From Amoebophrya sp. A120 (taxonomy: Eukaryota > Protista > Dinoflagellata): DNA of 64,000 nucleotides. The position numbers and the translations under genes were made by a program. The notes beneath the pieces were generated by a model, which worked only from the letters and a program-made list of their open reading frames with translations, was not told the DNA's origin and ran no database searches. Position 1 is the stretch's first letter. Every line of letters starts with the position of its first letter. Below, piece after piece: positions 3 to 55,100 of the stretch. The DNA lies in NCBI GenBank assembly GCA_905178155.1, contig CAJINV010000001.1:5894750-5958749 (forward strand), in the 5' to 3' direction.

Positions 3-2506
3 ATGCTGAGTCCCGGACAAGAGCAGCGGGAGGTACTATCGAGTGCAGCGGGCTCGCCGGATCAGCCCCTGCAGCGAACGCCGGACCAGCATCGGCTGCA
101 TCCGGATGGTCATAATTTCGCCGGCTCTCCGCAGCCCAGCGCCAGTTTGTCCGCTACAAACGGCCCGCAGCAGCAACAGTCCTCTAGCGCGCACTCCCCG
201 GACCAGCTGAATCATGCGCTAGTTCTGGCCGAGGATCAGCCGTTTGCCTTGCAACAAGGATCTGGTCATCTGCCTTTCGTGCAATTGGCCGGCCGCCGTC
301 CACGGGTGATCGCGCCGAGGTGTGGCGACTTTATCTCTAGTAATAGACAAGTGAAGATGAACACAGCTGCAAATAACGGCCTGGCCGTCGACGTGCTGGG
401 AGGGGTGCCAAGTTCCGTCGCAAACGCGAGCAAGTTCTCCAACAACTCCAACGCGCCGAACAAGGCGTTTCTGAGTTTCCTCGACGGGCCGCGGATCCAC
501 ATCATCCGCAAGAACAAGCCGGTCACGTTATCCTGAGTAAAAACGTACCCACACCAGAATTGTAATGCAGATTTGCAAAGACAGGAAGACTTGTAACGCG
601 CATCCCCATGAGAGCCATTTCCAATCGTGTTTTGGAATTTGTGATGCTGTGAGCAGGATGAGCAGATGAGTCTGTGATGCGGCTGCACTTGCTAACCTGC
701 ACTACAGTGCAAAGCGCAACTTGTCATGCGTGACTCACAAAGCTCCTAGGGTTGTGCTGCAGAATCCCCATCCTGACTCGACGTGCTGGGAGGGGTGCCA
801 TTGCGCCATTTTTCCAGTAGCATGCCGCTCAAGTGCCAACAGGGCGAGAGCCCTGCAAGACCGGGCTGCGAATGTAAGAAATCGGGAAAAAAATGCCGTA
901 TACCTGCGCAATTCCTTATATGTGAATAACAAGGTGGGCGGGCGGGGTTCTTCACATTTTTGGAAACGCCCACCGCCCCGACACAAACAGTATTCTTGGA
1001 AGCGGAGGGGGGGCGCGGGACCCCCATCAAGTCGCCGCGGCGCGAAGCCGCAAATCCTTGGGCCACGTCTACCACCAGAAGTATTCCGCCCGGGGGCCGC
1101 TCCATGAGTCCATGAGTCCAAAAAAAAAATGGGGGCCGGGCAAAAAAAAAAAAAAATCCCCATCCTGACTCTGGTGTGGGTACGTTTTTACTCAGGATAC
1201 ACGTACTTGCTCGACATCCAGGATTTTTCCTGCGCGGATTGGCAACCCAACTGCCGAACAGGGACGCTGGCACTCAGCGCCGGCTCGCACGTGTTCCTCT
1301 TTCGGTTGAACCTCTTTCACGACAGTCTCGAGCAAATTGCGCAGTTTCGGCTGCCCAGCAACCGGCGGGTGCTGGACTTGAAGTGGTCGCCGGACGGGAG
1401 GAGACTGCTGGCCGTGGACTTCTTCGGCCACTACCATGTCTGGGAGCACGCATCGCGGTTGCAACGACCCATCACGCTGAAACCGCCACTGAAGGGCGTG
1501 CTGGCGGGACCTATATCCTGGTTGAGCAGCAAATTTTCGAAGAAAAATAAAAAAGGTGCAACATCATCTTCTGCAAAGAAGAACGACAGCGACAATAATG
1601 CAGCGGCGGAGAGAAATAAAAACTCTTCGGCCACTACTGGCGCTCCAGTATCGCAAATACTGTGGAACCCGGAAGGCAACATGTTCTGCGGGTTCTCGGA
1701 CAGTGGGCACCTGGAAATTTGGGACGCGGTCAGGTACGAGCGCGTGTTCGAAATGAGCGACTTGGATTTGAAGCCGCGGATCGCCGGAAACGTGCCCCAG
1801 CGAGGCAGCTTCGTGTTCGGGTTAGAAGGCGAAGAAGGCGGGAACATGTATGAGGTAAGAAACAGAGGCAGCACTTATGTCTCAATATGCTTTTTTTCTT
1901 CGTCAATGAATCAGCATGTGTGATTTAGTTCACATTTATCGTGACACCCAAACAATCAACCAAACCCATCACCAGGTTCCGTGGCGACTCCGTGACATGC
2001 GGGAGATTTTGGAGGTTCATCTAGGCTTCTCCCTTGAAAACGAACGTTTGATGGACGTGGTCATAGACGCGACGACGCACAGCCGCCTCGGTCTCGTCCT
2101 CGACAAAGGTGTCGCTGTCTGCGACCTCTGGACCTGCGCTAGAGAGGACCCAATGCGGGATCTGAAGCCGCTGGTATGTACTTTAGTTGCCTTTTAAATG
2201 ATAGAAGACCACTTTTCGGATGATATGCTGAAAGCAGCTTCACTTTTGAAAAAAGGAGAGATAGATGAATGATCACGCACGCAAATGTCCACCTCTACAC
2301 TGAAAAACGAACCAAACCAGGCATCCTGGCCAAGCAGATACGGCGAGACAGACCGATCGGGGAATTTGCTTCTTCGCGACACCAAAACCTACACAGCGGA
2401 CAATTTCCGTCCGCTGACGATGAACTTCTGCATGCACTCGAAGGACAGCGCCCTGGCGTCCGTTCTCTGGGAGAACGGAACTTTGGACACGTACGCCGTT
2501 TCTTGA
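3..2506 (+). CDS. WD40/beta-propeller-like protein, 5' truncated by the window; exons approx 3-528, 1205-1853, 1976-2173, about 2285-2506
   Basis: Removing 529-1204 joins KNKPVT|YLLDIQD. WD-like motifs VLDLKWSPDGRRLLAV and VSQILWNPEG...GHLEIWD. GT-AG intron 1854-1975. The last exon boundary is uncertain. Confidence 0.6.
529..1199. mobile_element. TIR introner, family A, containing a nested insertion (780-1154)
   Basis: TIR TATCCTGAGTAAAAACGTACCCACACCAGA / TCTGGTGTGGGTACGTTTTTACTCAGGATA; direct repeat CACGT at 524-528 and 1200-1204. Confidence 0.95.
780..1156 (+). mobile_element. Poly(A)-ended insertion flanked by a 17-bp duplication (possible retroposed or templated insert)
   Basis: AATCCCCATCCTGACTC at 763-779 and 1155-1171; A15 at 1142-1156; absent from family A copies at 4807 and 53905. 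Confidence 0.6.
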
Positions 2507-3236: not shown

Positions 3237-6200
3237 ATGGCGCTACCGCGGACGGTTCCGGTTGACGAGCTCGGCGTGCTCCACACCGAGCGCGAAGCGG
3301 TGGACCCGCTAGGAGCCCGGAACGCCACGACAGCGGCAGGCCCCTCCGCGATGGCGGACCACTCGCTAGTGCCAATCGTCCACCACACTTCTAGCGGAGT
3401 TGGCGTGAGTGCCACTGGTAGTGCTGTGGACCACCACCACCATGCGGCCGCGATCAACCGCAGAACCTACTCCCACGACCTGGTTCTGCGCGACCACTTG
3501 CTCGAGGCGTCGAATCACACGCCGTCGACGGTGCGGAACAACTACGACCGCTACAACAATTTGGATTTTTACCGCGGCGGCCAGCATCCCTACCGCGAGC
3601 CGTGGGTGGTCCTCAAGTCCCCGGAGGAGGGACTTTTAGTTACTTTCGACCCGGTGTCGCACAAGATCGAGCTGCTGCGCAACCACGACCACCACCAGGC
3701 CGGGCTCGACTACTGCCCGCTGTGCGGCCAGGTGCTGGGCGGCCACGGCCCGGCGGCGACGGAGCGGCACCGCTCGATGAGCGAGGCGGGCTCCTCGTCC
3801 GCGGGCGATGCGGCGGTGCGGATGGAGGACGTGATGGAGATCGACGAAACGCCAAATCTATCAAATGTAAAAATGTCTGGGTCTGGAAGATTGCCAGGTT
3901 TGTCATGCACATTTTGCGTGACTCCTGATGTCTGTGATGCATGCCCTAGCGTCACAGATTTTGTGAGGGCTTCCTGATGCTTATACCGCATCACAAATGC
4001 TCTTTCCTTGTAGCAAAACTTGGACTCTCTTTGCTGCTCATGCAATACAGATTTTTTTAGAATCCAAAATCAGCATGACAAGTTGGATTCTTCCAGACCC
4101 AGACATTTTTACATTTGATAAAATCTGGACGCCGCAGACTTCGACTCCTACCTCCTCGTGGAGGGCGCGGGAGGCAGCACCGTAGGAATGGACCACGACC
4201 ACACGCCCGCAGGCTCCGAAAACTCGCGCTCCCGAGGGGCCTCCGGGCGGCCACCGTTGTTCCCGACCAGCAGCGGCGGGGGGTCGACGAGCAGTCGTGG
4301 TGGCGGAAACAAGATGAACAGAAGAACTGCAACTGGGCCGGGAGGTGGTGCTACTGGTGGCTCATCCTCTTCCACGCGCGCGCGGTTCCACCCACCCAGG
4401 GCATCATCTTCGCAAGACCACAACATGATGAACACGACGACATCCACATCTTCTCGCAGCAATCACCGCACGAAATCCCCGGCGTTCAATCCGCAGAAAC
4501 GGAATCCACCTTCGCAGATGCATTCGCCGGACATCCGCGGCCTGCGGTCCCACTCCGAAACTTTTGTGGATCATCATCACCACAACTCCCACCACAACAC
4601 CCCGAATGCCGGCCCCTCGTCGTTTCGGCCCGCACGCGCGGCTCCATACCTGGCACACAACTACTTCACGCTTTTGAGTGCCGTACACGAAGAGGAACAG
4701 GAACTGCGCGAGCAGATGGACACAGCGGTCAATCAAGCCACATTGGACCACCACGGCGGAACCGGGGTATTTCCAGCCTTGGCGGACACCACGAGCGATT
4801 TCGATGTATCCTGAGTAAAAACGTACCCACACCAGAGTTGTAATGCAAATCTGCGTGCTGAAAATGTTTCTCATGCGGAGCCCCATGAGAAGCATTCTCC
4901 AGTCGTGTTTTGCAATTTGTCATGCTCCAATCAGCATGGTATGCTAGATCTGTGATGCTGCTGAGCTAGCTCAAACAGCACTACACTACGAATCCAAATT
5001 TGTCATGCAAAACAGCCAAAACTTGTGGATTTGTCTAGCCGATTCCCCAACTTGACTATGGTGTGGGTACGTTTTTACTCAGGATACGATGGCGGTGTAG
5101 TTCTGGATGACACGACGAGTTTTTATCCGTCCTTGCCCCCACCTCCAGTTCCCGCAGACAGCAGCAGAGAGAACGATGAGGATGACGAGATTCTTTCGCC
5201 GAAAAGCATACAAGACCGACCGGCACTAGAAGAAGGATCATTCCACCGCTCTAGATCCGCCTCCTCACGGAAGAGCCCGCTGCAAGAAGAGCCCGGTGTC
5301 GAGACACTGAACACCGCGAGCGCAAGGACTGGAAGTCTGCCCCGAGCCGAATCCATCCCTACTTTTGACACCAGTGCCCCGCCGGACACCAACCCGGGAA
5401 TCTTTCAGCTCACCACGGGTCCGGCCACGCGCGTGATAAAGCCGCTGGCATCTTCTGGCGGGTCGCAGTCCTCGTCGAAAACCGGACATGGTCCGGGGGT
5501 TGCAGCCGGACATGGTCCTCCGGTTGACTACAACGGTTTATTTGGACCACCTGCAAGAACCGCCACTACCACTTCTTCCGCAGGAGCTGCGACCAACACC
5601 GCAAGCACTAACGCGAAGCAGTACGGGCAGCTGCCGTGCGGCTTGATGAACGACGGCTACTACGAGCGGTTTTTCGTCGAGGTCGAATCTTTGGGACAGG
5701 GAAGTTTCGGGCACGTCTTTCACTGCCGGCACACCATCGACGGCGAGGCGCTGGGGGAGTTCGCGGTGAAAAAGGTCGCGGTGGGCGATGATCGCCAATG
5801 GCTGCGGAAAATCATTCGCGAAGTGAAGGCTTTCGAACGGCTCAACCACCCGAACATCGTGCAGTACAAGCACAGCTGGCTGGAATCCTGGCAGGTGAAC
5901 GCTTGGTGTCCCCGCGTGCCGTTTCTCTTCATTTTGATGCAGTACTGCAATCGGGGTAGTTTGCAGCAACTGATCGATCGCAACTACGAAAAGGTCTGTT
6001 TGGAACAACAGCAACAACAGGGGCGCGCAAAGACGGCCGCGAGTGGTCACCTGGTGCAACTGAACGCGCCCGCGGGCTGTAGCTCGCACAAACGCGGCTC
6101 GCAAGCCGTCGGCAGTAGTTCCTGTAGCAGTGCAGCGCACGCCAACATCCCGACTAGCACTGCGTCACAAAATAGCAGCGGATCGTGCGGCAAAAATGCG

Positions 6201-10928: not shown

Positions 10929-13900
10929 ATGCCGCCTCGAAAAGGCGGGCGCAAGCGGAAGTTAGCGGACGATGACTCCGAGGAACAGTCTCGTGCGCGA
11001 CAACCGAAGCAGGTCAAGGCCGAAATACAACCTGCCGAGGAGGCCGTACCTCCATTCGCGGAGGAACTACCCGCTGCCGGTGGAGAAGCAGAAAATGATC
11101 CTGCTGCCGTACAAGAAACACTTGCCGTGGAGCTCCAGCCAGACGAAGTCAATGAAGAACCAGACGCGTTTGCAGCAAACGAACAAGAAATTGCGGCGCC
11201 AGCTGCACAGCCGCAAGAGTCCGCCGAGTCGTCAAGCAGCTCGTCCTCCTCATCGTCAGCAGCTGCACAGGAGGAAGCACAACATGCGCCCGCCGCCGAC
11301 GAGGAAGCTGTGCCAGCAGACGCTGAAGTAGATGTCATGGAACAGCAGGTCGACCCCCCCGCAGAACCGCCTGTTTCGTCCAATGCAAAGCAGGTTGCCA
11401 GTGCTTCGAAGAAATCTTCCAATTCCTCCTCCTCTTCGTCCTCATCCAAAGCGGCGAACAAAAAAAAGGATCCGCCTTCCGCCTCAAGTAAAAAGAACCA
11501 GCCACTCTCTGCGGGCAAAGTTGTAAACAGTGCCAGCAAGGCGGTTTCGTTTAAGAAGCCGGCGAAGAAGGACACGATTGAAACGTTGCTGCCGCCGTTG
11601 GAAGAGGACGAGGAGAAGCCGGAGCCGAAATCCGCCATGAAGGGCAACAAGGCGAAAACGCCGATGAAGGTGCAGTTCTCGCAGGCCGAAGTCGAAGAGT
11701 TCTCCGCGTCCCAACTGAATGGCACGCCGCGACTGGACCCCGTGACCGGACTTCCGCTCAACAGCTCGGCTCCAACGTCAAGCCAGCAACTGCCCGTCCC
11801 AGGCGCGTCAGCAGCAGCATCCTCGTCTTCTCAACATCATACAGCTGCGTACTACAACAGTGGCAGTGCCTCTGCCCCGCCAGCCTCGTCTATGTTCATG
11901 AACAACAGCGCAGCCTCGGAGCAAGATCAAGAAGAATACCAGCAAGGACCTCCCCCGCCCAGTGGCACCGGTTCGAACGAGGGGTCCGTCCGGCCGTCCG
12001 CGGTTCCCGGGGCGGCGCCCAGCGCGCAGAACAACACGAGTTCCAATCCCTCGTCGGCAGCGTCGCCCGACCTGCCGGACAACAATGTGGTGCAGGTGGA
12101 GAAGGAGCCCGAGAAAAAGCAGCGCCTGATGATCGAGAAGATCGAGCTGGAGAACTTCAAATCCTACGGCGAGAAGCGCACCATCGGGCCCTTTCACCAG
12201 CTCTTTTCCGCGGTCATCGGGCCCAACGGGAGCGGGAAGTCCAACACCATTGACGCCCTGCAGTTTGCGTTCGGAAAGCGAGCCAAAGAGGTGCGACAAA
12301 ACAAGTTGTCCGAACTCATCCACAACTCCAAGGGGAAGGAAAATTTGAAAATGTGCCGGGTCTCCGTCTACATGATGGACATTTTGGACGAGCCCGACTT
12401 TGACGCAGACAAGCCGTACACCGTCGTGCCGAGTACTTCGTTTTTAAAAAAAATTTCAGTTTGTTATTTTTCTGTACCACTAGAATAGTCCTTGTGGTTT
12501 GCTGAAGCTTTTCCTTCGTGTCAGTACTTTGGCAGGTTATCAACAAAGTGAACTCGACAATAACCACACTCCCTTGCAGACACGGAGATCGTTCTAACGC
12601 GAGAGGCAACTTCGAAGAACGTGTCCACCTACTACCTAAACGGCAAGACGTCAAGTTTTACGGAGGTAACCGACAAACTGAAGGAACGCGGCGTGGATCT
12701 CGTGCACAACCGGTTTCTGATCCTGCAGGGCGAGGTAGAGGCCATCTCGCTGATGAAACCCAAGGCAGTGATATGAGGGTGCGCAACTGCTCTGTCTCTT
12801 TCTCATTTGTCATGCAAGAGTTCTGCCAAATTCTGTCTCTGACCCTTGCGGCCGTCTATGCTTGTATGGCAGGTTCTGGAAGTGTGGCCCAAACTGCACT
12901 ACAATCCGGGCGTTGATTTGTCGAGTAATTGCAAACGCGGCGCTTTACTTTCGAGGTGATTTCTGCTGCTACTAGCGCCGTCGCACTGCAAATATAGGAG
13001 CAGATGGAGTAGTTGCTTTTGCACTCTGATAGGCGAAGGAGGGCGGCGAAGACGGGTTTCTGGAATACCTGGAGGATATCATCGGCAGCAACAAGTACGT
13101 GCCGGCCATCCAGCAGGGAAACCGGGACCTGGAGCTGATCACAGGAACGCGGACGGACAAGTTGCGGATGTACCAGATGTCGGAGAAAGCGCGGGAGCAG
13201 ATCAAGCCGCAGTACAAAGAGGCACTGAAGTGGATCGAAACGAAAAAGCACCTGCTCATCAGCGAGGCCTACCGGAAGCAACTGGAGCGCAAGTCCTGCC
13301 GCGAGACCGTGACGGAGGTGCAAAAGTGCCACGACGACGCGGAAAAGCTGGTGCAGGAAAACCAGAAAAAGAAGGACGAAATCGTCGAGAAGCACAAGAT
13401 ATGCATTGCAAAAGTATCGTACTCGTCGTATAAATGCGAGTCTAGGATGACGGATCTGCCTTCTATCTTAGCTGAATCCGCACGACGAATTCATTTTTCT
13501 TCTAGGAAGATAAAATTTGTTACGCAAGTCGTACGAGTTGTACGATACTTTTGCATTTGATACAAGAAGTTGACGGATGAGCATCAAGATCTGCTGAAGG
13601 TTTACCGGGCGAAAATGGACGAGCTCAAGGGATGCCAGGAAAAAATGGCGCAATTCGAGATATCGCAAGAAAAAACTGTTTCACTGTGAACTTGTGATGC
13701 AGAAAATGGATCGCAGCCGTGTGTATCATGCCACACATGCAAGACAATGGATTTCTAGCTGTGTTTTCCCTTAGGAACCCCGCATGACAGATTTTCAGTA
13801 TCACGCGTAACAAACGAAACTTGTGATGCAGATTTTGCAAAATCACCACAGTGAAACAGTTTTTTCGTGCGATACGAGATGGACGACAAACAGTGCCAGC

Positions 13901-16900
13901 AGGAGAAGCTCGAAACCGAGCATATGCATTGCAAATACGTCTGGGTCTGGAACGCTGGAGCTTGTCATGCTAAATTCCAATCACGCAAAAATCTGTGTTG
14001 CCTGAGTACCAAAAGTGGCCCACTTTTGACCAAGCTGAGAGGGATTTTCTCATGCAGGGCAGGCATGATAGAGACCTCACAGAATCTGTCATGCTCGGTC
14101 CTGCATTCCAAACCTCATGGGCCATGGAAAACGTGCATGACAAGTCCTGCATTCTTCCAGGCCCAGACATATTTGCAGTTGATAGAGCAAAAGAAAAAGC
14201 AACTAGACGAAGAGATCCGGGAGGCGCAAAAGGAGCAGGCGGACCAAGCGAAGAATGCAGAGGAACAAGAAAAAAAAGTGATCCCGCAGGCCGAGCAGGA
14301 GCTGAAATCTACCGAGCGCTTTCTCGAGGTGCAGGAGGACAAACTGAAAAAATTCGAAAATTCCTTGTCAGGTTGGCTTTTTTTTTGCCTTTGTTGAACG
14401 CAAAAGACTAACAACGTTAAAAAACAAGCCTGCGCAGTGCTAGTGCTATACTAGAAATTTCTTATGGTTATGCGGGTGCAGCTGGTCGTGTATTTCTGGT
14501 GGGCTTTTTACTTGGTTGCCGGTGTTATTTTTCATTTTTCCATATATGTGAGGTGAATCGAGCCGGCTTCGCGAAGAGAAAATGCAGTGGGAGGCAAAGC
14601 AAGCGCCGCTCGCCAACAAGAAGCAGGAGCTATCCTGTGTAAAATATTGGAAGTGTTTGGCTATCGCTATCCTCCTTGTACTGCACACCGCTTCTGCACA
14701 GAGATTTCGCTCTCTTTGAATCATCATACATATAACTTCGTTTTGTCATTGGAAAGGAAGCGGCTGCACAATCAAGGATGAGGAAGGAGGTAGCCATCGC
14801 TATCCTTTCTTGACACACTTGATAAGGGTTGAGGGGTAAGCTGGAGATGCTGGAGTTCGAACGAAGTCAGCTCACAAAGCACGTGCAAGAAGCCCATGCG
14901 CGTTATCCTGTGAAAAATTATCGCATTGGTGAGTACAAGAAACATGATTTGCATTTGCAGGTCAGCAAAGAGAGGACTTACTACTAACTAAGGATTCTTG
15001 ATGTTCTCGAGCTCCTGTCTAAATGTTAGTCAGCATCGATCCCGGGAGATTACAATTCGATTTGCAGTTTTGCTGTGTCATCTTAAAAAAGACGACTTCG
15101 TCTTCACATCTCATGCGATAATTTTTTCGAACGCATAAACTGCTGGATAGGATGAATATGGAGCATGGTCAAGCCATTTATGAAACTGAAAAGTGCTGCA
15201 CCCGTGCCAAGGCAATTCTGCTATTTTGCGAGGAACATTCGAACACAGGAAATGTGATGAAGAAATTTGCGGCTTGCATGGCGCGGGTGGGCTTTGGCTT
15301 TTCCTTTTGATAGTGTCGGGCAGAGAAAGAAACTCCAGGAAGAAATAGATTTCTGTTCGGAGCAAGTATTGGTTGATTTGTCGTCTTTTTCTCCTCGCTT
15401 TCATATACAGTGTTTTGGTTTTCTTACCGCCCTATACGAACTTTGCTGGAGACCCCCCTAAGAGCAGATTTTAGGATTGCGTATTAAAACTGCTCGACAT
15501 TTCAGATACACGTGAAGACACCGCTGGTGCGAGAAGGGCAGAAACGGCTTGATGCTATCCGGCGTTAAACATCCGCATTGGCATCCCCACCTCAGCGTTT
15601 AGACACACACAAGCTTTTAATGCAAAATTTGCGTTTACAGAAACTGAAACAGATACAGATACAGTCCCGTCCGCTTCTTCCCGTCCGTGGCATCGAGGGC
15701 AACGCTGCGTGTGTGTATGTGTGTGTTTTGTAGGGTTTTTTTGCATGTTTGTCGTTGGATTTCCCAGAGCAACAGAATAGGAAAACGCTCCCGATGTTGT
15801 CGTGCAGGTTTATGTCCCGTCTGCTCAGAGGTGGTAGGTGATGGCCTTGTTGTGGCTGTCTTTGCACTACAGGATACAAAAGCTCGCGGAAATCATAAAG
15901 TCGAAGACGCTATGCATCAAGGAAATATGTCTGTGTTAGGATAGGAAGAATGCAACAGACTCGTGGTGCCAGGGCTAGCTCTGGCTAACACGAAGCTTTT
16001 CATTCTTGCATGAGCAGCAAAAGCAAAACCTATCTCCTTCATGCTATTAAGGATTTCTATACGCGGTATAAGACGAGAATAAGAAAGCATTTGTCAAACA
16101 CGTGCTGCTGTGGCTGCGCCTTGCATTGCAAATATCGCTGGGCACGAATAAGCTGCCGATTTTCCAGACCCAGACAGATTTGCAAGGCATAGACACCAAT
16201 TCTGAGCCACCTGAATCGCCAGTACGAAGAAGCGAAATACCAGGTGGAAGCTATCCTGAGTAAAAACGACCGCGCCCCAGAATTGTCGTGCAGATGCAGC
16301 AACATTTACATTCGTAATGCGCACCCCCATCATAGGTATGGGAGGCAAGGGCATTTGCGTTTTTCGCCGTGCTGGGCTGTAAACAGGACAACCGGGCAGA
16401 TGGCTTTGTGATGCGGCTGTCCTTACTAACCTGTAATGATGCGTGAGCGTGACTCCCAAATAGAAATAAAGTTCAGGGCGGAAACGTTTTTACACGGGAT
16501 AGAGGCCCACAGAAACACTACCACACGCATACAAATGTACTGATAATCTGTTTCACTGTGACGAATAATTTTTTCCACAGCTTGCATGCTCATAGTGTGA
16601 AGGCGAATGAAATCCCACTTGCCTCAGAAAAAAATCTGATATGCACCTACCGCAGTACCAATACCTCCTTTATCTTTACATGTTAACTTTGTTATGGTCT
16701 TTCGTTTTACCAAAGAGTTTCGTCGTGCACTCATCTCTTGCAATAGCGTCACAGGAAAACAGTTTTATCTTGGATACACACGAGCAAGCTGATGAAAGGC
16801 CTGTACGAAGTATCCGCTGGAAAAGCGCTAGCATCAAGTACAACAACGCAAAAATGATCAAACCGACATACAGTACGAGAATGCACTTTGAGCAAATGTA

Positions 16901-19900
16901 TAACGTGCCTGCCGCCTACGTGCTCGCCGATGAAAATGTGAAAATTTTCTTTCAGTGTTTTCTCATGTCTTGCAGCTCTATCGTGATTGCAGACGATGTG
17001 CTCATATGCTAGTGACATTCTGCGCGATAAAACGCGCGGCGCAAGGGCGACGTAGACTTCATTGACCGACTGGGCAACCTTGGTACAACAACCTCTAATC
17101 CGTTATACTTTGTTCATGAATATGTGTCTTGTCTTTCTCGTCGTCAGCTCAATAAAAAGGTGCACTGCATAAATTTGCTATGCGGGGCGTATGGTTCTTA
17201 AAATCCCACTATACCTGCACCTTCTTCACCAATTTGATGTATAAAAATCAGGTAAAATTGATGACAAGTACGACGTTGCGATAACCCAGGCGGGCGGCGG
17301 GAAGCATGCTTTTGACCAAATCGTGACCGAAACCGCCTCGCAGGGAACGGCGATAATCAAGTGGCTTAGCGAGAACAACGCGGGTCGCGCGCGAGTCATC
17401 GCCTTGGACCAGGTCAGCAAGGAGGGTTGGGACCGAAACCCGGGCAATTTACCCCGACCGCGGATCTTCGACATGGTTCGAGCCACAGAGGACCGACTCA
17501 GGCCCGCATTCTACTTGCTACTGAAAAACACGCTCGTGGTAGAAACTATGGACGAGGCAACTCAGGTACAACTACTTATTTTGATACGAATTCGATTGAT
17601 AAGTGTTGAAATACGAAAGTATAACGTTGCACGGTAGAATTTCGTAAAACTGAAAGAGCAAAAGAGATGAAAGCGTAATAGTTATTGTTGTAGCGACGCG
17701 GTCCCCTTCGTCATCGTCTGGCTACACCGCTAGCGTTGCAGCTGTGGCAGCGGACGTGCGCAACACTGTGCGAGAAAGATTCAGAGAACATGGATGTGAC
17801 AAGCTAAAATTTTTAGGTGAGCCGGCATAACGGTCGACACCGAGTGGTTACCCTCGATGGGGGGATCGTGGATCCAAGCGGCACGGTCACGGGAGGCGGA
17901 ATGCAGAAAGCGGAGGGAGGCGGGTTGTCGGGACCGGAGGCAAGTGGTACGACACGGACGAATCTAACTCGGAATCCCCTTTTCCTTGCATCTACTTGCC
18001 GAGCTGGTGTGCATTGTCAATTGCTTTTTCCTTTCATAGAGAACTAACTGAAACTGCTCTACTAGCTCTACTACTTAGAGAATGCGCTGTAGTAGTAGAA
18101 AATCACCAATTGTACCCATATGACCTTAGTATTGTGTTATCGTTTATTCATCCGTAGCAACTGCGTCTGCGTGTGGAGAAGACGGATCGCACTTCGCGAC
18201 ATGCTGTCCACCTTTCTTTATTCTGGCTTTTCATGGTGATGGTTGTGCGAGTTTGACAGTCAAGAAGAAAAAGCAACAAGTCGGAGGTGGGATTAAGTAC
18301 GTAGGGATTGGAGTACGTCTTCCACTGCACAACCCGACCGGCATATTCGGAGGCGGAGGTGGAGAAGATGAAAAAGGAACGGGACGAAGCCAGGGAATAT
18401 GTTGCAGGAGTGGAGAAGGAGCTGGTTGAGCTCACGCCCGTCGTGCAGGAGGTTTCTAATGAGCTCGAGCAGAAAACGCGGACGAAAAAACACTATGAGG
18501 CGCGGGTCCCCGACCTTGACAGAAATATCGAGCATTATGCCAACCGGATCGAGGAGGCAAAAACGATGCCCGTGCTCAACCCAGAGCAAGAAAAGGCGGT
18601 CTCGAAGCTGCAGACCGAGGTACTAGGTTCTTGTGTACAACGATTAATTGTCATCGTAGATCGATGTACATGATGTGCTACGTACAAAGCGTAATTTTGA
18701 TTAAGTTCACCGCCTGTTGTAACGGGAACCAGCTTTGATGGTACAGAAGTGAAGGCATGTAGTTCAACCAGCCGATAGCGCGGAGCGCTCGCATCCGCGA
18801 CTGATGCGGAAATAGACACGTTAAAAATTTGCATATCAGGTGTCCAAAGTGACGAGCGAAATCGGGAATGTGGACCTCGAATTAACGGAGGCCACCGACA
18901 AGGTGTCCGAGCTGACGAACGCGATTTTCAACGTGGGCGGGGAGGAGCTGAAGAACCTGCAGAACGAGGTGAACAACGTGAAGAAGAAGGTGGAGCAGCT
19001 CCGCAAGGGCCACATCAAGGCCAAAGGGCAGGTGGAGATCTTCCGCAAGAACGTGCAGGAAGCGGTAAAAAAGGAGGCGGAGTCGCGCAAGAAGCAAGAA
19101 AACGCGGAGCAGGCGCTGGTCGACCTGGAAAAGCTGGTGGAAAAAACCGAGAAGGAGGCCGGTGAGTGCCTGGAGCGCTTCCACTTGCTCATGACGGAAA
19201 CGTATCAAATGTAAAAATGTCTGGGTCTGGAAAAGTGTAGACTTGTCATGCAGATTTCCCATGACCCTTGAGGTCTGGAATGCGGGACTTAGCATGACAG
19301 ACTCTGCGAGGTCTCTGCCATGCCTATCCTGCATGAGAAACTCCCTTCCAACTTGGTCAAAAGTATAGAACAGCTTTTGGCACTCATGCAACACAGATTT
19401 TTGCATGCTTCAGATTTTTGCATGCTTCAGTTGGCCTCGCTGCCGATGCTGTCGGTAGCGGATGTCCGCGTTCCTTTAGAAGTATGGCGGGAAGCGAAGG
19501 TTCAGATTTACCATGACAAGTTGTAATCTTCCAGACCCAGACATTTTTGCAATTCATAGAACACAAGCCGACGAGCACCAGCGCAAGGATCTGGACGCTC
19601 AGCTTGCCAAAATATCACACAGAAAAAAGCTGGCAGGGCATATTGATATTTGTAATGCAAAAATAAACACACAGAAAAATCTGCATTGCATATCCGAAAC
19701 GGCATGCTATGAGGCCGCCCATGCCAGATTTTTCTGTGTATTTATTTTTGCATTACAAATATGCCCTGCCAGCTTTTTTCTGTGGGATACAAAATTGACG
19801 AAGACCAGAACGCGGTCGCAATGGTCTTGCTCGACGTCCAGGACTATCTCATTGAAGGCAAAAGTAGTACTAAATCGCATTCGTATGAACGTTGAAGAAT

Positions 19901-23605: not shown

Positions 23606-24280
23606 CGAGACGAACACGTTACACGTTCCGACAGAGACGCTGCAGCTCCCGATTAGTCTGGGTCTGATCCTAGAAGGAAAAGGACGCTATAGGGTTTTGT
23701 ATAGGAACACAGACAGGATAGATTGATATATCAACGGTCACTAGATTTCCATATTCTTTCAAACAAGGAGATGAAGACACAGTCAATGAGTAAAACTAAA
23801 ATGAGTATGGAAGCTTTTACGCGGATTTACTTTCAAAACAGGTTAAACTTAAAACAGCGAAAGAAATCAATGCTGGAAAACAAACAGCACTTCCGTTTGT
23901 CGTTTTTTTTTCGGTCTTCCGAAACAAAACAGGATTCGAGAGAGCTACAGGCTCCCGTTGATATCATTCCCGCTAATCAACGGAAAAAGTGGCGTTGCTG
24001 CTTGACTATTGTTGCAAGTTGTTGTGCCTATGACGTGCTTGACCTTTGCGAAAGCAAGCATGTTGACGTGCACTTGTTCGTTCTCTCTTTTTTGTTTTTC
24101 ATACGTATTTTTCTGGCGGTGAGAAAGAATTCAGATAAAAATCGCAATTTTCGTGTTTTTCCTGCTTCGTAGCAGTCTGCACTGCCATAGCCATTGCCAT
24201 ACCTAATCGAATATGACGAAACCGCAACTCGTTTTTTTGAGAGATCACGTCGTTGCGTTGCATGGTCTGGTTGCTACCGC

Positions 24281-27200: not shown

Positions 27201-27974
27201 GCAAGTTTGTCATGCTTGTCTGGCATGACTCATAAATCTGTAATGCATGAACAGGAAAAGGGCCTCTTGCCTGTCATGCAAACACGCAGTTTGCCATGCG
27301 GATAAGGAAACACAGGAGCAGCTGAAAAATTTGTCATGCTTAGCTGCGTATTGCAGTCCGCCCACTAGTCAGATTTTAGCATCACAAGTTTCCAGACCCA
27401 GACATATTTGCATTTGATAGAAGATTCAGAAACCTCGACAAACACTTCGACTCCATTGGCCTCTGATGTCCCTGTGGCCTTTATCGTGGGGACAGGCCAC
27501 GCCACCGGGGAGACCCTGGTGTTGCTCCAAAGCGATAGAAATTCTAGTTGTACAGCTTTTAGCAAAGCTGTTGACCACGACAGCTCAGGAACTACATCTT
27601 GGTCTTCTGACTTTGAAGACATTATCGACACAAGTGCCACAACATGCTGGAGTACTGTTGCTTTAGATGTTGAAAAGTCGTCGTATAATAACACGAGCGG
27701 GACCTGCTCCGACGATCGTGGCCACAACTTTTGGTTGTACGGCAGCCCTGCTCTGGTCCCAGGCGACGGTCGGTTACCAGCAAACAGGATCCTACCTCAG
27801 TTCCGGCCTGAAGAATCCAATACAGATAGAAGCTTTATTACTGCTAGTTGTGCTCGGAGAAATTTATTACGTACGCTTGAAAGCTCACCTGTGTACGAAA
27901 CGCGAAACACTCACAGCACTATGCTGAATGACCTTGAAGTTCTGAATGAAGCGATGATGCACGTAGGCATGTGA
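24281..27974 (+). CDS. LCAT/phospholipase-like alpha/beta hydrolase; exons approx 24281-26864, 27058-27166, 27425-27974
   Basis: IVFVPGYKGS, FVYDWR, nucleophile motif VVAHSFG, C-terminal PGDGRLP and H..MLND; frame restored by removing two elements. Confidence 0.75.
26865..27052. mobile_element. Degenerate TIR introner hidden inside an open reading frame
   Basis: Direct repeat CAACA at 26860-26864 and 27053-27057; TATCAAAG...AGTGCCCCAC / GTGGGCACTTTTCCATATGATG; join WLN|TLAVPRRLSDPAAEEHLRHCLALARAFW. Confidence 0.7.
27167..27419. mobile_element. TIR introner, family B
   Basis: Family B TIR; direct repeat GAAGA. Confidence 0.95.
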
Positions 27975-37518: not shown

Positions 37519-39679
37519 ATGTCAGCCACTCAGTGTCCGGTGGGCACCATGGTGTGGAGCGAATGGACGCCCGGAAACCGCAAAGTCGCTGTGGTTTACG
37601 CGTATTACCCCGATACCAACTTCTACCACTTAGATTGGATCCACCAACGGGCGTTCTGCCACGATCTTCGCTCTGGTCACGAGAATGAGGACCGGTTCAA
37701 GGTGTATTGTCAACGACGACCGTGGCAGGTGCACATATTAGATGATGAAGATGAATGCTTGTTATCATTTTTACGACCACGACGATAATTAACGACTTCG
37801 AGGATGCAATTCCATTGATACTTACACAGCCCACCACGACCTCCAATTTTACTATTTGGTTAGCGCATCGCACGATTCCTCCAGTTTATTACACCACATC
37901 AATCGAAATTCCTTTTCCCGATATGAAGATTTTCAATCGAAAAATCTAGATGTGGCACCACTCGAACCAGAACGCGTGCGGGGCGTTCGAGGGGGGCAGC
38001 TCCACCCCGGGCCTGCAACAGGGTGGGGACGACGTGACAGTGGACGACGGGAAGGGGGTATGAATTGCAAATGTGTCTCGGTCTGGAAGGTTGCAACTTG
38101 TGATGCTGCATTTGGATACTACAAAAATCTGTATTGCATGAACAGCAAAAGCGGTCTCGTTTCTGCCACGCCGAGAGGGCATTTCTCGTGCGGTATAGGC
38201 ATCAGGAAGCTCTCGTCACAAAATCTGTGATGCTAGGGCATGCATCACAGACGTCAGAGGTCATGCAAACTGTGCATGACACCTTCCACACCCAGACATG
38301 TTTGCATTTAATAGGGGGTGTTCATCGGGCTGGGCGTTGCCATCGCGATTGTCTCCGCGTTGTACCTGTGCTACAAGTGGTATGGATGTGTCAGAATCGA
38401 AATTGACAAATATCGAAAACTTTGTGATGCATAAAATCGATACCAGTTGGGGCCTCAGTTTCCAAGTGGCGCATGACAAATTTCGGGAGCACCCAAATCC
38501 AGTCTGTCGTGCTGTTTGGACAAAGAAGACTGTTCCTGCCATGCTACTCTGGCAGCGCATTGCATACCCCTAAACAGGCTTACAATCGGTCTCAGTTGCC
38601 TGCTCCCCAACACAGGCCTTCAGTGCCCTGCATTTTATGCATCACAAGTTTTTCGATTTTGTCGATTTCGATCCTGACACATCCATAAGTGGGCCCAGGG
38701 GGTCGTGCGGGAGAAGCACATGAAGGAGCATGGGGAGTACCCGAAGAAGCGGACATCGTCGTTCCAGTCGCCGGGCAAGTCCGGCGGGTGGACGGCGTGG
38801 ATGAAGGACGCGAGCTTCACCTGGAACAAAACCATGTCACCCTGGAAGTCGTTTTCGCCGCAAAAGGACCTGGACAACCACGACGGTATTGCGCCCGGTG
38901 GTCACGCTCACGGGGGAAGCGCGAATAAACGGGATTCATACAATCGCGGGCCGTCGCTGTGGGAGCTGGCGCAGCAGGAGTACGGCGGCCAACAGGTTGC
39001 TGGAGCAGAATTTCTACCGCAGCACCCTGGGCAGCTTCAACTCCAACACCCACAACTTCTGAACACTAGCGAGCACGAACTTCCCAACAAGAAGATGAAC
39101 GGGCGCATAAGCAAAGGCACTGGAGGTGCAGCAGTTTCTGCGGCGGGACCGCCCCGCGACAGTCGTCGGCCTAGTCAGAACAAGCTTTACGGTGGGGGAA
39201 GTACTCACTCGATCGGGTCAACGGCCGCCAGTGCGACCGCATCTTCCGCGGCCCCAAGTGCGCGCGGCGTGTACAACAACAATCCGCCGTTGCCGAGTCC
39301 GAACTCGATGGAAGTCGTGTCTGTCGATTCTGCGGTCACCCCCCGACACCCGGGCTTGGCGATCCTGAATCCCCTGAAACTGTTCCCAACCGACGAGGAA
39401 ACCAAGCGGGGGTACAAGTTTCCAACCGGAACATCTTCAAGGCCAACTGGTGCAACTACTACTTCCCAACCAGCGTCTCGCCGCCCAAGCGTGGACTCGC
39501 AAATGAGCCGACAATCCGCGCAGATAAATCAGCGGCCGAGTAATCGGGTGGCGCCGGTGCCGCCGGGCGCTGCATCAACCGGAACAAGCACCTCCGCCTC
39601 TCGCCGCCCGTCACAAAACACCCAGCTACGCAATGGTGCGTTATCGTACCACGTGGCAAACAAATACGCGGTGCGCTAA
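37519..39679 (+). CDS. Hypothetical single-pass membrane protein; exons approx 37519-37728, 37950-38058, 38319-38380, 38693-39679
   Basis: Splicing yields the hydrophobic helix GVFIGLGVAIAIVSALYLCYKW followed by a low-complexity tail; GT-AG intron 37729-37949. Confidence 0.7.
38059..38313. mobile_element. TIR introner, family B (inverted relative to 3859)
   Basis: Family B TIR; direct repeat GGGGG; interior matches the reverse complement of the 3859 copy. Confidence 0.93.
38381..38687. mobile_element. TIR introner, family H (about 55-bp TIR)
   Basis: TATGGATGTGTCAGAATCGAAATTGACAAA / TTTGTCGATTTCGATCCTGACACATCCATA; direct repeat AGTGG. Confidence 0.95.
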
Positions 39680-46456: not shown

Positions 46457-49400
46457 ATGCGTTTCGGCTTGCCGTTGCTCGCCGTCGGGGCATCGGCCCT
46501 GGCGGTCGAGAATTTTGACAATGAGGAGTATTTTGCGGACCCGAGCGAGGCCCTGAACGCCTTCCACTCCCAGTATCGAAGTATGAAGGAAGAAGCCGAG
46601 CATCGGACAAAGCACATGAAGCCGGATGAAGCTCTGGAAATTTTGAAGGCAAAGCTGCCCGAGCACGACCACAGTCACTTGTCCATGCTCGCGCTGAAGG
46701 CACGAGACAACGGCACTTTGAACGTCCAAGAGATGGCAAAAGGTAGTCAGATCTGGCGTCTGTATTTTTTCGTAGTTCGAAGATCGGATTCCGATGCGTG
46801 TAGAAAACTCCCCATCACGAAGTTCCGTGAGTTTAGAAGCCACTTCGCACGTGACAAAGCACCATGTGCGAAAAGACGTTTTTTTTCTAACAAGAGACTT
46901 TTTAAATCCCAAAACCAGGTGTTGTTGCCATCAACAACATGTACAAGGAGACCGATCAGGAGCGCATTACCACCCTGACCACGTGCTCGCAAAAGCTGTA
47001 CGCCATCTACCGCACGAACTTTATGATTGCAAAGGAAATCAAGGGCTTGAACGCAAAGAGCGAGGACAAAAACCAGGTGTACGACGACGCGCAGGGGCAG
47101 AAAAAGGAGTTTCTGGATGACAAGAAGACCCTGGAACAGGAGCGTGAGCAGCTGAAGGTCGACCACGCCAACGACATGAAGGAGCCGCTGGCGATATCGA
47201 AGTGAAAAAAGCCCCCACCCCATATCGGAAACGGAAGATGCGCGAATTTGTGATGCTGTATTTGAGTACACAAATCGACTTGTATTGCTAGAAGGCCAAG
47301 AGACGAAGCTGCGGCCTAAATTGCAGGCAATCTGTCATGCTGTTTCCCAATTCCAGTTGCCGCCTGTCATCCTGGAGCTGCAAGGCTTTCCCACACTGGA
47401 CAGCACTACAGTCCGCATCTTTTGCCTTCTAGCATCACAGAGCTGATTTGTGACCACAAATCTGCATCACAGATTTCCGTTTTGATATGGGGAGGGGGCG
47501 TTTTTCATTGTAATAGGCGAAGGAAGCGGAGAAGGTCACGCAGGAGCGTATTTTCACGGTCATTTTGAAGGGCATCAACGAGAAGTGCGGCAGCGGCGAC
47601 CTGAAGCCGAAGACCAAGAACGCCATGCGGTTCCGCCGCAACCCGCAGGTCGCGCCGGAGTCCAACGCGACCAACGCCACCGCCGGGTCGGCGCCGTCCC
47701 TGGTGCAGAACAGTGAGGAGTTCACCGTCGACGAGGCCCGCGAAATGGACACCGCGGACGCCGAGTCGCGCATGTGCGTCGGCATGCAGCAGGAGTCCAG
47801 CATGAACCGGTTGTTCCTCTCGGTGTTCTCCAGCCCGGAGGTGCAGGAGGCCACGAAGACGGGTCTGGACATGGACTCGCAGAAGGCCATGGACATGACG
47901 CTCGCGAACCTGCGCGCCGCCGAAGACGAGGAAGTCGCGCCCAAGTACCAGAGCCAGGCCTTGTTGCAGAAGTCCCCGTCTCTGCAGGGGCCCTGGTCCG
48001 TCTCGGACGGTACCGACACCAAGTCGCCGATGTGCGGCTCCGTGGAGCAGATCGACTGCGACGTGCTCATGACCATGATGGGTGAGCAGCTGGAGTGCGC
48101 CCGCGAGGAGCTACGGAAGGCTAAGGGTATTAAGCTTTGAACAATTTAAATCTAAATTTGGTGCCGTTTCTCTTCTCCTCAAATCTTGTTGTATGTGCGG
48201 ATCTAACTCTGGCCATCTGTTTTTATCATGAAAAATTCTTGTACGATATCTTCCAAAAATTCACTCCAGGTGAGCGTGCCGCGCTCGAGGACAAGCAGCG
48301 TGAGGAGATGCGTCTGAAGGACGGTTCTATCGTTGCCGCGCAGAAGGCCGCGGACACCCAGCAGAAGTTGATGAACGATGCGCGATCGACCGTGGACGGT
48401 TACAAGAGCCAGATCAGCGACTTGAAGGAGGAGCGCATCCGCTACGCGAAGTCCATGCACCTGGAGAAGACTAAGTGCCACCTGCAGCTGTTCGAACTCG
48501 AGGCCAACGGCTTGTGTGCATGCAAGGCGCTCCGCAACTTCTGGCTCAAGGAGACCCTCTCCAAGGCCGGCGTCGAGGACGACGCTGTCACGGACTGCGA
48601 GGTAATTACTTATTTTGTGATATGATAGCTTCGGTTGCTCGATTTGGGTTTATTTTTTGTGTGTCATTGTTCTTGGAAGTCGTGCGATGGTGATCGGCTA
48701 AATTTAGATATCAACACACTGCCGCCACACAATAACCTCATCTCACCGGTAAAAACCACTCCAGGCTGCCGACACCATGATGCCGACCGGCGAGTGCCGC
48801 ATGGGCCCGAAGGCCACGGGTGAGATTCGCAAGTGCGTTGCCGGGAATAAGATGCCGGAGGACGACGAGCGCTTGCCCAACCGCAAGTGGACCCGGCAGA
48901 TGGAGGGCGAACCGGGCCAGTCCAAGGACCTCGAGTCCCTGGGCGAGAAGCTGTACCTCGAGTGCCCCCCGGAGACCATGATCCTTCCCTGCAACCGCTT
49001 TTTGTGCCCCGTCGACTGCGAGGTCGGCGAGTGGGGCGACTGGCGTGATTGCTCCGCGGAGTGCGACGGCGGCACCGAGCTGCGTGAGCGGTCCGTGGTT
49101 AAGGAGCAGGCCTTCTTCGGTCAACAGTGCCCGGACCTGATCCAAACGCAGAAGTGTAACACCCAGAAGTGTACCGAAAACTGCAAGCTCCACGCCGACT
49201 ACGATGACGAGGGCGAGGGCTGCTTGATGGTGCTTATTACTTAGCCGCTTTTTTTTTGATGATGCAAGTTGTTTTATGGCAAATTTCTTTTATATGCTCT
49301 TCAATGAGAGTCGCATAGCACAAAGTAGATCTGAATTCGTTGTTCTTTTGTCACGCAGGCTTGCGTCCAGCCGCTGTCCAACACGGAGTCTTCGGGCGCC

Positions 49401-52155: not shown

Positions 52156-55100
52156 ATGCGGCAGCAGATAGCGGCGCTTTTAGCGACCGCCGGGGTTTCG
52201 GGTCGAGAGACCCAGAACCCCGTGGTGACCGGCGCCATGGAGTCCACGTCGCCGGATCTTGGCGAGGTGGCCAGTATGCTCGAGGACATGCAGAAGGGTA
52301 TTCAGCAGCTGCACGATGAGGATGCCTCGCTGTACGAAAAGGAAGCCTGTCACTGCGAAGAAGAGACTTCAAATCTGGCCGAACCGGGGAAGGGCGTGAT
52401 TCCGTTGGTAGAAGCTCGTTACGGGCCGTTTGTGTTTTCTTTTATGTTGTCATTTTCTTTATCTGCGCAGTGTGTGACGCCTGGGTAGGTAAACAGAGCC
52501 AGGGTAGTGGGTATTTGCAAGAACGGGTTGAGTAACATCCCACATGTATGATAACTCAAACCAACTAAAATACAATTTCCAGGCCGTCCTCGCCATCAAT
52601 GAGGCCAGTCAGACGATTAAAGAGAAGACTGCCTTGAAAAAGGACGAGGAAGAGGATCTTGCGACCAACACCGAGGAGCTTGCTGCCGTCCGCAAATTAG
52701 AGAAGGAGCAATCTACGGCCTGGGCCAAGCGAAAAGCTGAGCTGGAGGCTAATATTGCAGAGTCCACTATCCAAGAAAAAAACTGTGTGAGTGTAACTTT
52801 GTGTTGCAGAACATACAACAGAGTTACACCTGTCATGCCAGACAGCCACGAAGTCCTATTTTCATGTGTGTTTTCCCGTACAAGCGACGCATGACAGGTT
52901 TTCTCTGTCATGTAGAGCAAATTTGTGATGCTGTTCCCCAAAGAAACTTACACCTACACACTTTTTTTCCTGGATATCCACACAGGCAGCCAACGCGTTA
53001 GCCGGCGCCACACAGAAATTGCAGTCGGAAAAGCACGCTTCGATCCTCAAGCTGGTTGAAGACATGATGACGGAAACCAAAGGTACATGCTAGCGCTCAT
53101 TTTTAGGTTTTCTAGCTCTTTCCACAAGCATCTCATTTGTACTGGAAGCTGTTTTCAGTTTCATCAATTTCCATTTTAACACCGACCGCAGACACTCTGA
53201 AGACCTACAACACGGAGAAGTCCACGGAGCAGACTGCTCGCGACGACCAGAACGTGGCCAACATTAAGACTGAGGCCGACGAGAAGGAGCAGATCCGCCT
53301 TGGCGAGGAGTCCATCGCGGACTGCAAGGAAAAGATTGGCAAGGCCAAGACCAAGTTGCTCGACAACGAGGGCGAGTTGAAGGACGCGCACCAACAGCTC
53401 GCGGACCTGACCGCGTTTTGCGAGGCCCAGGCGGGAGATTGGGACAAGATGTCCGCCGAGCGCAAGAAGGACTTCGGCGTTTTGGTATCAACTGTAAAAA
53501 TGCCTGGGTCTGGAAGAATTCATGTTTGTCATGCTTGTCTGGCATGACTATTAAATCTGTCACGCACGTTACCCAAGAGCTCCGCTTTTCTGTGATGCAG
53601 AGGCGCAGCTTGTCATGCAGAATAGGCAACACCTAGGAGCTCAGAAACTTGCCATGCTGAGCCAGCATTTGTAGCCTCATCATGAGACGCTACCCAGCAT
53701 CACAAGTTCCCAGACCCAGACATTTTTCCTTTTGATATTTGGAGGTCGCGATCAACGTTTTGACGTGCGGTAAGGAGAAGTGCGGCGTGGCGCCGGACGA
53801 GACGAATTTTGCCCAAGTCTCCTTCCTGCAGACGTCGAAAAAGGCCGCATTCTTGGCGAAGTTTTCCCAGAAGAACCGTTCTCACATGAAGAAGCTGCAG
53901 CAGTTATCCTGAGTAAAAACGTCCCCACCCCAGAGTCAAGATGGGGATTTTGCAACACAAGCCATGAAGTTTTGGGAGCCACGCATGACAAATTGCAGGC
54001 TGTATTGTAGTGCAGTTTAGCAAGGGAAGTCGCATTACAAATCCATCTGCTTATCCTGTTTACAGCATTACAAGTTCCAAAACACGATCGGGAATGCCTA
54101 TCATGGAGATGCGCATTACAAATGCACTTGCGCTTGCAGATCTGCATGACAGCTATGGGGTGGGGACGTTTTCAAATACGATAGCAGTCCGACTCCGCCA
54201 AGAGAAACGCTGTGCGCTCTTTGGTTCGCTTCGGCGAGCAGAACGGAATGAGCGAGTTGCTGCAGTTCAAGAGCGTGTTGAAAAACCAAAAAGACCCGCT
54301 TCTGGGGGCGAAGAATCTGTTGCGCAAGCTGATCGAGAAGTTGACGACGGAGATGGCGCTAGACCAGGGCGAGATGAACAAGTGCTCTACGGCGTTGGCG
54401 GAGTGCACGACCAAGCGAGACTTCGCGCTGGAGGAAGTCAGCAAGGTGAATACTATATCAAGATGTGCATATTTTCTTCAAATCCGAGCGCCTTTTTCTT
54501 TTTCACTCGCTGAAGTCACCTTCTGGGTGACTTTGACCTTTGTTACTTCGGGGTTACGTTTAGGGCCATGAGTTAGAATTCAAAGTCGCGTTCGAAAAAA
54601 AAACACGAAACCCAACAGTTGAAAGTGGAGGCCGAGGAGCTCGGATTGTCGGTCGAAGAGGACAAGAAGGAGTTTGGCGAGCAAGCTATCCCACAGAAAA
54701 AGACAGGCAGGTCAGATTTGTAATGCAAAAATCAATACACAAAAAAATCTGCCATCGGCGAGCCCATAGCATGCTGTTCAGGACACGCAGTGCCGATTTT
54801 TTTGTCTATTTAATTTTGCATTACAAATCTGAGCTGCCTGCTTTTTTCTGTGTGATACAAGCCGTCGAATACAAGGAGAACCAGGACAATGCCAACGAGA
54901 AGACGGAGGTTGTCATCCCCGAAATGGAAGAGGCGTACGCGACCGAGAAGCAGGAGCTGACCAAGCAGAAGACCTGGCTGCACCAGGCCGTCGTGATTCT
55001 GCGGAAGCACTTTGGCATCGAGGAGAACGATTTGCGGTCGGGCAGCAAGGACTCCGCCTCCGGCCTCACTGAGGGCGTCACGGAGAAGTCTACGTCGGCC

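Follow-up and report, generated by a model that had tools for sequence, protein, structure and literature searches.

TAT-ended repeats of Amoebophrya sp. A120 are probable introner elements with a 5-bp target duplication, likely inserted by one transposase encoded elsewhere

A stretch of 64,000 nucleotides from the dinoflagellate Amoebophrya sp. A120 (contig CAJINV010000001.1, positions 5,894,750 to 5,958,749; hereafter the window) carries short repeats with terminal inverted repeats (TIRs) that begin with TAT and end with ATA. With a probability of about 85%, these repeats are introner elements of A120, short and non-coding, whose insertion is likely due to a single integrase-type DDE transposase with its gene elsewhere, and which are likely spliced out together with one copy of their target duplication. 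The elements belong to the introner system already published for A120, and the finding as first written is not new. Three refinements were not found in print: a strict 5-bp duplication, an internal motif and a single splice register. The original prediction, made from the sequence alone, had described families of mobile elements. It missed that every element open to testing is an intron; the elements work like a miniature inverted-repeat transposable element (MITE) that is also an intron.

Thirty inverted-repeat pairs of the form TAT…ATA and up to 700 bp long were found in the window, and 23 of them have an exact 5-bp duplication. In eight Markov shuffles of the window, 0-2 TIR pairs appeared, none with an exact duplication. 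When all 64 terminal triplets were tested, TAT alone yielded TIRs together with a 5-bp duplication. Extending the TAT…ATA search to 2.6 kb raised the candidates to 61, with 23 exact 5-bp duplications against the termini. In the catalogue of 30 elements, the duplication is exact in 23, matches at four of five positions in five and at three of five in two. Eight extra decayed copies were recognized through gene structure, giving 38 elements and 9,797 bp, or 15% of the window (Table 1). The termini of families A and B lie where the original prediction had put them, its 12 family B copies were counted again, and its TAT/ATA ends with a 5-bp duplication were borne out. Families other than A and B are named here by the core of their TIRs. 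Same or related interiors occur in both orientations inside genes on the + strand. The 671-bp family A copy has about 390 bp of extra interior (790-1150), partly common to loci L058, L059 and L089 of the set described below; its depth in sequencing run X5 is above single-copy, and it has no Pfam match in the three frames scanned. The 356-bp family B copy at 19203 exceeds its relative at 23007 (93% identical) by about 95 bp and contains a short internal duplication at 19400-19420.

Related loci were collected by scanning metagenome contigs with a B-type pattern. The 159 stretches obtained, all from one assembly series, were kept as 150 loci (749 kb). They share no unique sequence with the window and come from A120 or a close relative, and the sample is skewed to family B (165 of 334 elements). 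A search started from locus L017 brought up no protein of A120. An unbiased inverted-repeat search of loci and window gave 523 pairs, 269 of which are anchored on TAT/ATA. Duplications were scored up to 10 bp in the loci and up to 12 bp in the window, where none above 5 bp was found. Among the anchored pairs, 187 have an exact duplication of 5 bp, one of 4 bp, three of 3 bp and none of 6-10 bp. Another 35 lack any duplication match and are probably cross-pairs, formed between neighbouring elements. Of the 254 unanchored pairs, the first 60 are mostly internal pairs or cross-pairs. A duplication length that varied freely had been named in advance as counter-evidence, and the length proved to be fixed at 5 bp in window and loci. 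With looser search settings, 334 exact elements of 109-671 bp (median 260 bp) with inverted ends were obtained, and the base composition across their target site is flat. The predicted A-run near end positions 9-15 is present as well, with A at positions 11-13 in 89-96% of these ends. Near-full-length matches in the related loci number 5-165 each for 22 of the 30 catalogued window elements, and one more has a single match.

Single linkage on TIR positions 11-30 sorts the ends into 19 clusters overall and six in the window. Family A joins the CCCCCTCCCC type, and two CTGT types join each other. Several TIR types therefore exist, as had been claimed, but the 23 exact window elements form six clusters and not at least eight dissimilar families. 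Nor are the families wholly dissimilar. An internal motif, TGTNATGC, recovered by de novo word search as TGT(C/G/A)ATGC, is common to 16 of the 19 clusters. It points inward in 432 of 668 ends and outward in 113. In the window, it occurs 81 times in 7,026 bp of element sequence and three times in the 56,974 bp outside, once within a decayed copy. The exact motif is absent from eight of the ten listed worn or decayed copies. A flat target composition and insertion in both orientations fit DNA transposition. Taken with one terminus, one duplication length and the shared motif, they appear best explained by one trans-acting DNA transposase. Transposition at the DNA level with a 5-nt staggered cut would produce the 5-bp duplication, and TGTNATGC is a candidate binding site for the shared enzyme.

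The intron status of the elements was seen in contigs of runs X1-X4, which come from two samples of one study. X1 contigs join 523 to 1200, 3853 to 4121 and 4801 to 5087, and each skip equals an element plus 5 bp; a GT-AG intron at 9004-9135 is missing from them too. One X1 contig runs from 16251 to 16778 with only an 8-letter micro-exon in between, so that two elements are left out. Nine more elements, from 19203 to 23571, are skipped in the X1-X4 contigs alongside canonical introns. In total, 14 elements are skipped, each by its length plus 5 bp. Because canonical introns are skipped too, these contigs are read as complementary DNA (cDNA). Micro-exons of about a dozen bases (16507-16518 and 21366-21376) lie between an element and the next intron and are joined correctly in the contigs. 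The raw runs X8 and X9 have 11 and 22 reads on the window, nearly all partial.

Ordinary MITEs that disrupt genes might give the same picture if the element-free contigs derived from a strain or an allele in which the sites are empty. Loss of an element with one duplication copy looks exactly like an empty site, and the runs are guessed, not recorded, as RNA. This explanation is hardly credible, however, since the same contigs also skip GT-AG introns in the 22173-22322 region and at 30551-30716, besides that at 9004-9135, and join the micro-exon. At diverged duplications, the contigs are mosaics of the left and right copies. Moreover, contigs of run X5, whose summed depth is about 45 over unique sequence and reaches 10^4-10^5 over elements, pass from unique flanks into element ends. 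A functional SMC4 gene would also be incompatible with 20 unspliced insertions.

This SMC4 gene was identified through a stretch of 210 amino acids in an SMC-like open reading frame (ORF) of the window; the stretch is 100% identical to P0001, a protein named Amoebophrya sp. A120. P0001 maps on the window as 22 exact segments from 10929 to 20170 and carries SMC_N and SMC_hinge domains (Pfam). Two annotated A120 proteins, P0001 and P0121, were mapped exon by exon, and 33 junctions were examined. Thirteen can be GT-AG introns and 20 cannot. Among the latter, 19 have TAT-like and ATA-like ends (at least five of six letters) and an intron equal to the element plus 5 bp. Hairpin-dependent splicing was considered as well. 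The young B copy at 3859 folds far better than its shuffles (z -12.5). The decayed copy at 15556 has no significant fold (z +0.58), yet it is absent from the annotated protein. Dependence on a hairpin is thereby weakened, and what is kept appears to be the terminal letters rather than the hairpin.

The position of the splice sites can be read at junctions with diverged duplication copies. The register k is defined here as the number of left-copy duplication bases kept in the exon. At five contig junctions, k is at least 3 (16252), at least 1 (16519) or at most 4 (19203, 19845, 21798). A further eight junctions come from proteins, with k of at least 4 (14904, 16811, 31872) and exactly 4 (15556) among them. 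A register of 4 is permitted by all 13 informative junctions, 3 by nine and 5 by eight. The sole register fitting all 13 is thus k=4, which would put the left cut 1 nt ahead of TAT and the right cut 4 nt past ATA, giving introns the form N-TAT…ATA-NNNN. Outside these 13, the GT-AG introns at 15366 and 18620 also have near-TAT/ATA ends at register 4. Mismatches at duplication positions 1-4 point in no decisive direction, with 31 that have AT on the left and GC on the right and 17 of the reverse kind, among 287 of 411 elements whose orientation could be inferred (one wrong among 26 window checks). Most canonical donors in these genes begin with GTA, and N-TAT may take the place of the canonical donor, GTA(C/T). 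The pyrimidine tract would be supplied by the T-run at the right end, with no AG needed. Removal of the element with one duplication copy would leave the protein unchanged.

The original prediction recognized no known system with TAT ends. Those ends are in print for A120: the inverted ends of its introners start with TAT, followed by seven bases of lower conservation and three or more A, with direct repeats of 3-5 nt at the exon boundary, one 5-bp example being given in the legend to Fig. S19 (Farhat 2021, PMC7789003). The same source counts 29,850 copies in 1,954 families and describes A120 as lacking U1 small nuclear RNA (snRNA). Organism, ends, boundary repeats, non-canonical introns, number of families, repetition in the genome and lack of an internal transposase all agree with the elements described here. 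Three features differ: the duplication is fixed at 5 bp, against 3-5 nt; the register is single, against variable; and a motif links most families. The nine predominant non-canonical A120 pairs in Table S4 of that paper all start with N-T, which fits k=4. No statement of a fixed register or of the internal motif was found in print, although the figures (Fig. 3 and S19-S25 of PMC7789003), subscription papers, eight rows of the PMC12130899 dataset and Repbase may hold either. Among other introns, the MITE-derived ones of Fritillaria borealis also bear TIRs and duplications and have non-GT-AG ends, and the non-conventional introns of euglenids are non-GT-AG and pair at fixed offsets from their splice sites (PMC11282704). 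Termini and offsets differ from both: Fritillaria prefers AG-AC/AG-AT ends, whereas here the first base and the last four bases of the intron are host target sequence.

A further step has an even chance of being correct. One undescribed integrase-like lineage, with TAT ends, a 5-bp cut and TGTNATGC as putative binding site, would have made most non-canonical introns of A120. The A120 spliceosome, apparently devoid of U1, would remove them by cutting at fixed distances, 1 nt ahead of TAT and 4 nt past ATA, needing neither GT nor AG nor a hairpin.

The intron status itself provides a second reason for shared ends. TAT and the A-run might be a splicing filter, such that several unrelated transposons entered a gene-dense genome and the survivors were those whose ends worked as splice signals. 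The prevalence of GTA donors speaks for this. So do the decayed copies, in which TAT…ATA persists although the TIR and the fold are gone, and mostly the internal motif too, as expected of termini under host selection. In addition, A120 introners are placed in diverse classes, including one Mutator family with an 8-9 bp duplication, in PMC12130899 (Gozashti 2025). A filter needs no common duplication length, since loss of one copy with the element is clean whatever the length; 5 bp is nevertheless found throughout. It also leaves the motif of the 16 clusters unexplained. As a full account, the filter is rather unlikely; it is compatible with a single enzyme, and the two are not exclusive.

The single mobilizing enzyme of the original prediction is plausible, and the internal motif adds support. 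Terminus, duplication length and motif make it probable, but the enzyme was not found. As already claimed, the window holds no transposase ORF: among its 24 ORFs, including three that lie within the 671-bp element, none matched a transposase, integrase or reverse transcriptase family (Pfam). Two TIR patterns had no match in viral contigs. A pairing of 8.7 kb in L041 was rejected as chance because of its unlike ends and 4/5 flank. The interiors of the three long elements in Table 1 are unrelated; the L016 element, at 813 bp, comes near the published fam38 (about 810 bp) in length. At L018:2635-6090, a C-5 cytosine DNA methyltransferase gene was found, which is possibly relevant to the silencing of elements.

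Judged from the sequence features, the integrase-like group (IS3EU/GingerRoot, IS481EU, Ginger, Copia integrase) is a tentative assignment with slightly less than even odds, a hAT-like enzyme is unlikely and something else is somewhat unlikely. Ginger2/TDD elements have TGT..ACA termini and Transib elements CAC..GTG. Both were rejected on the terminus test, in which only TAT gives TIRs and a duplication in the window, and the difference in termini noted for Transib and Ginger in the original prediction thus stands. Ginger2/TDD does share a 4-5 bp duplication (PMC10045372/PMC12730594). The IS3EU/GingerRoot elements, whose enzymes belong to the integrase-like DDE group, have TA..TA (TAY) termini and TIRs longer than 30 bp, as here, but their duplication is 6 bp, a length found in none of the 269 anchored pairs (PMC10045372, PMC12730594). 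IS481EU resembles the elements in its TNT..AYA termini, short TIRs and protist host, and differs in its parabasalid hosts and its duplications of about 4, 15 or 25 bp, against 5 bp in 187 and 4 bp in one of the 269 pairs (PMC10045372). Most A120 families are classed as TIR DNA elements of unknown superfamily, with 'Unknown' in 48 of 50 rows examined out of 58 (PMC12130899). One entry, fam38, is noted as Ginger, '5-bp TSD, TA/TA Termini' (TSD, target site duplication), with Copia/Gypsy homology, while the text of the paper describes this element as having neither homology to Ginger nor the Ginger termini or duplication (PMC12130899).

A hAT-type, hAT5-like transposase could also be the mobilizer if it bound the internal motif as subterminal repeats. 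hAT elements have subterminal repeats and YA..TR termini. The several motif copies per element resemble such repeats, and TA fits such termini. The hAT5 families share the 5-bp duplication, but they lie within the animal hAT lineage (PMC12730594); hAT membership is defined by the transposase. No hAT domain was found in the scanned ORFs of window and loci (Pfam), and the Repbase-domain search reported in PMC7789003 gave no transposase in A120. This origin is accordingly unlikely.

A third candidate is the integrase of a resident Copia long terminal repeat (LTR) retrotransposon, acting in trans on excised DNA or on cDNA of spliced introns. A120 has autonomous LTR elements and no detected DNA transposase (PMC7789003), LTR integrases give 3-6 bp duplications (PMC10045372/PMC12730594), plant Copia elements with TA…TA ends exist (PMC9804982) and fam38 has Copia homology (PMC12130899). 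The elements, in contrast, have long TIRs and no LTRs. Moreover, the elements are bounded exactly by TAT/ATA, while cDNA of spliced introns would bring along old target sequence at its ends (1 + 4 nt). Such trans-mobilization is improbable. The elements themselves were also compared with Copia retrotransposons with TATA ends, and this identity was rejected on their size (109-671 bp), inverted ends and lack of an rve or reverse transcriptase domain.

Several points weigh against a single integrase-type enzyme and a fixed register. No transposase, integrase or reverse transcriptase was found (Pfam) in 198 locus ORFs, the longest non-overlapping ones among 275 ORFs of at least 200 amino acids, although the loci are below 1 Mb, were picked by a short-element pattern and have little bearing on the whole genome. 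The longest supported TIR-bound elements, of 813-1104 bp, have no Pfam match, and the enzyme class is read from termini and duplication length only. In PMC7789003, no transposase is reported for A120 and transposase-mediated mobilization is ruled out. According to the same paper, the position of the splice sites varies with respect to the hairpin. The register comes from 13 junctions in two genes, eight of them from gene models, and AG is not clearly enriched at positions 3-4 of oriented duplications, where it occurs in 23 of 231, compared with 14-17 at the other offsets. The runs showing the skips carry their RNA label by guess only and represent one study with two samples. Finally, one non-canonical junction, 17947-18335 in SMC4, lacks TAT/ATA by the filter used. 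This intron starts with GTAC, ends with CC and has TAC and ACA where introners have TAT and ATA; it is possibly a very old introner copy.

Table 1. Elements of the window, long TAT-ended elements of the related loci (prefix L) and the host gene; sequences after "flanks" are the left and right copies of the target site, and "register" is k as defined in the text.
Feature	Coordinates	Strand	Remarks
Family A element, 671 bp, duplication CACGT	529..1199		intron in WD40-like gene; 524-1199 skipped in X1 contig
Family B element, 262 bp, duplication AAATC	3859..4120		protein kinase gene intron; skipped in X1 contig; hairpin z -12.5
Family A element, 280 bp, duplication CGATG	4807..5086		kinase gene intron; skipped in X1 contig
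Decayed element, TAT..ATA retained, flanks AGTGA/GGCGA	12772..13031		register 3-5
GTATCGTAC-type TIR element, 163 bp, duplication CAAGA	13400..13562		catalogue and gene model
CTGTTTCAC-type TIR element, 214 bp, duplication CGAGA	13661..13874		catalogue and gene model
Family B element, duplication GAGCA, interior inverted relative to 19203 and 23007	13923..14184		catalogue and gene model
Decayed element, flanks GGAGC/AGGGT	14631..14824		gene model
Decayed element, flanks CGCGT/AACTG	14904..15137		register at least 4
Decayed element, flanks CCATT/GTGTC	15179..15312		register 3-5
Decayed element, flanks GATGC/CAAAA	15556..15876		register 4 alone reproduces annotated protein; fold z +0.58
Family B element, left end worn, flanks GACGC/GACAC	15911..16191		gene model
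Family A element, flanks GAAGC/GAGGC	16252..16501		contig retains left copy to at least position 3
Worn element (TAC..ATA), flanks AACAC/CACAC	16519..16776		preceded by micro-exon; register at least 1
Decayed element, flanks CGAAG/AAACG	16811..17029		register 4-5
Family B element, 356 bp, flanks AAACG/GAACA	19203..19558		register 1-4
GCTGGCAGG-type TIR element, duplication CAAAA	19613..19789		skipped in contigs
Worn element, flanks AGGAC/GGGAG	19845..20060		register 1-4
CCCCC-type TIR element, duplication GGTCA	20773..21087		skipped in contigs
CTGTGTAAG-type TIR element, duplication ATTTT	21157..21365		skipped in contigs
Worn element, flanks CCAGC/CCAGA	21798..22045		register at most 4
Family B element, duplication TCTAT	22564..22825		skipped in contigs
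Family B element, duplication CTCCC	23007..23267		skipped in contigs
Family B element, duplication GGACG	23321..23571		skipped in contigs
Family B element, duplication GAAGA	27167..27419		between two long ORFs; splicing not seen
TAT..ATA intron, flanks CAGAG/TCAGT, GT-AG at register 4	30552..30712		likely old copy
Decayed element (TAT..ATC), flanks AACAT/CCCCT	31872..32116		register at least 4
CCCCC-type TIR element, duplication GATGA	33412..33734		catalogue and gene model
CTGTGTAAG-type TIR element, duplication GTGAA	33798..34009		catalogue and gene model
Family B element, flanks AACGG/AACGA	34052..34302		catalogue and gene model
Family B element, duplication CGTCA	34363..34622		catalogue and gene model
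Family B element, duplication GGGGG	38059..38313		catalogue; splicing not seen
GTGTCAG-type TIR element, duplication AGTGG	38381..38687		catalogue; splicing not seen
CCCCC-type TIR element, duplication GGCGA	47195..47515		catalogue
CTGTGTAAG-type TIR element, duplication TCCAC	52768..52976		catalogue
Family B element, duplication TTTGG	53486..53737		catalogue
Family A element, right end like CCCCC type, duplication GCAGT	53905..54183		catalogue
GCTGGCAGG-type TIR element, duplication CAAGC	54687..54857		catalogue
Long TAT-ended element, 813 bp	L016:1537-2349		one overlapping ORF scanned, no Pfam match
Long TAT-ended element, 834 bp	L029:632-1465		ORFs without Pfam match
Long TAT-ended element, 1104 bp	L021:505-1608		ORFs without Pfam match
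Host SMC4 gene	10929..23868	+	holds 20 of the 38 elements; end coordinate from X1 contig

The public SMC4 model looks truncated. P0001 stops at 20170, and the X1-X4 contigs add six exons onward to 23868, with the C-terminal ATPase motifs near 22322-22558 in exons beyond its end. Further genes of the window encode kinase, cyclase, WD40, TSP1 and Rer1 proteins (Pfam). The large adenylate/guanylate cyclase gene at 40472-45870 has two catalytic regions, an uninterrupted ORF of 1,624 codons and no introners. Another gene, at 48753-50582, combines thrombospondin type 1 domains with weak von Willebrand A domains, a pairing that occurs in apicomplexan adhesins. Every identified gene lies on the + strand, which matches the unidirectional clusters reported for Amoebophrya. 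A purine-rich tandem coding repeat on the + strand at 61700-64000 was left out of the repeat scans, and Rfam gave no match anywhere in the window.

Two questions are open in print: what moves these elements, and how a spliceosome with apparently no U1 snRNA removes introns that are not GT-AG. With a fixed duplication length and a shared motif, the enzyme can be sought more narrowly, and the motif can serve as bait sequence. A fixed register is a testable rule in place of 'variable splice sites', and it can be checked on existing RNA sequencing data in a day. If it is true, the published splice-site variability would be mostly alignment ambiguity within the duplication, and any insertion, whichever way round, would add a silent intron.

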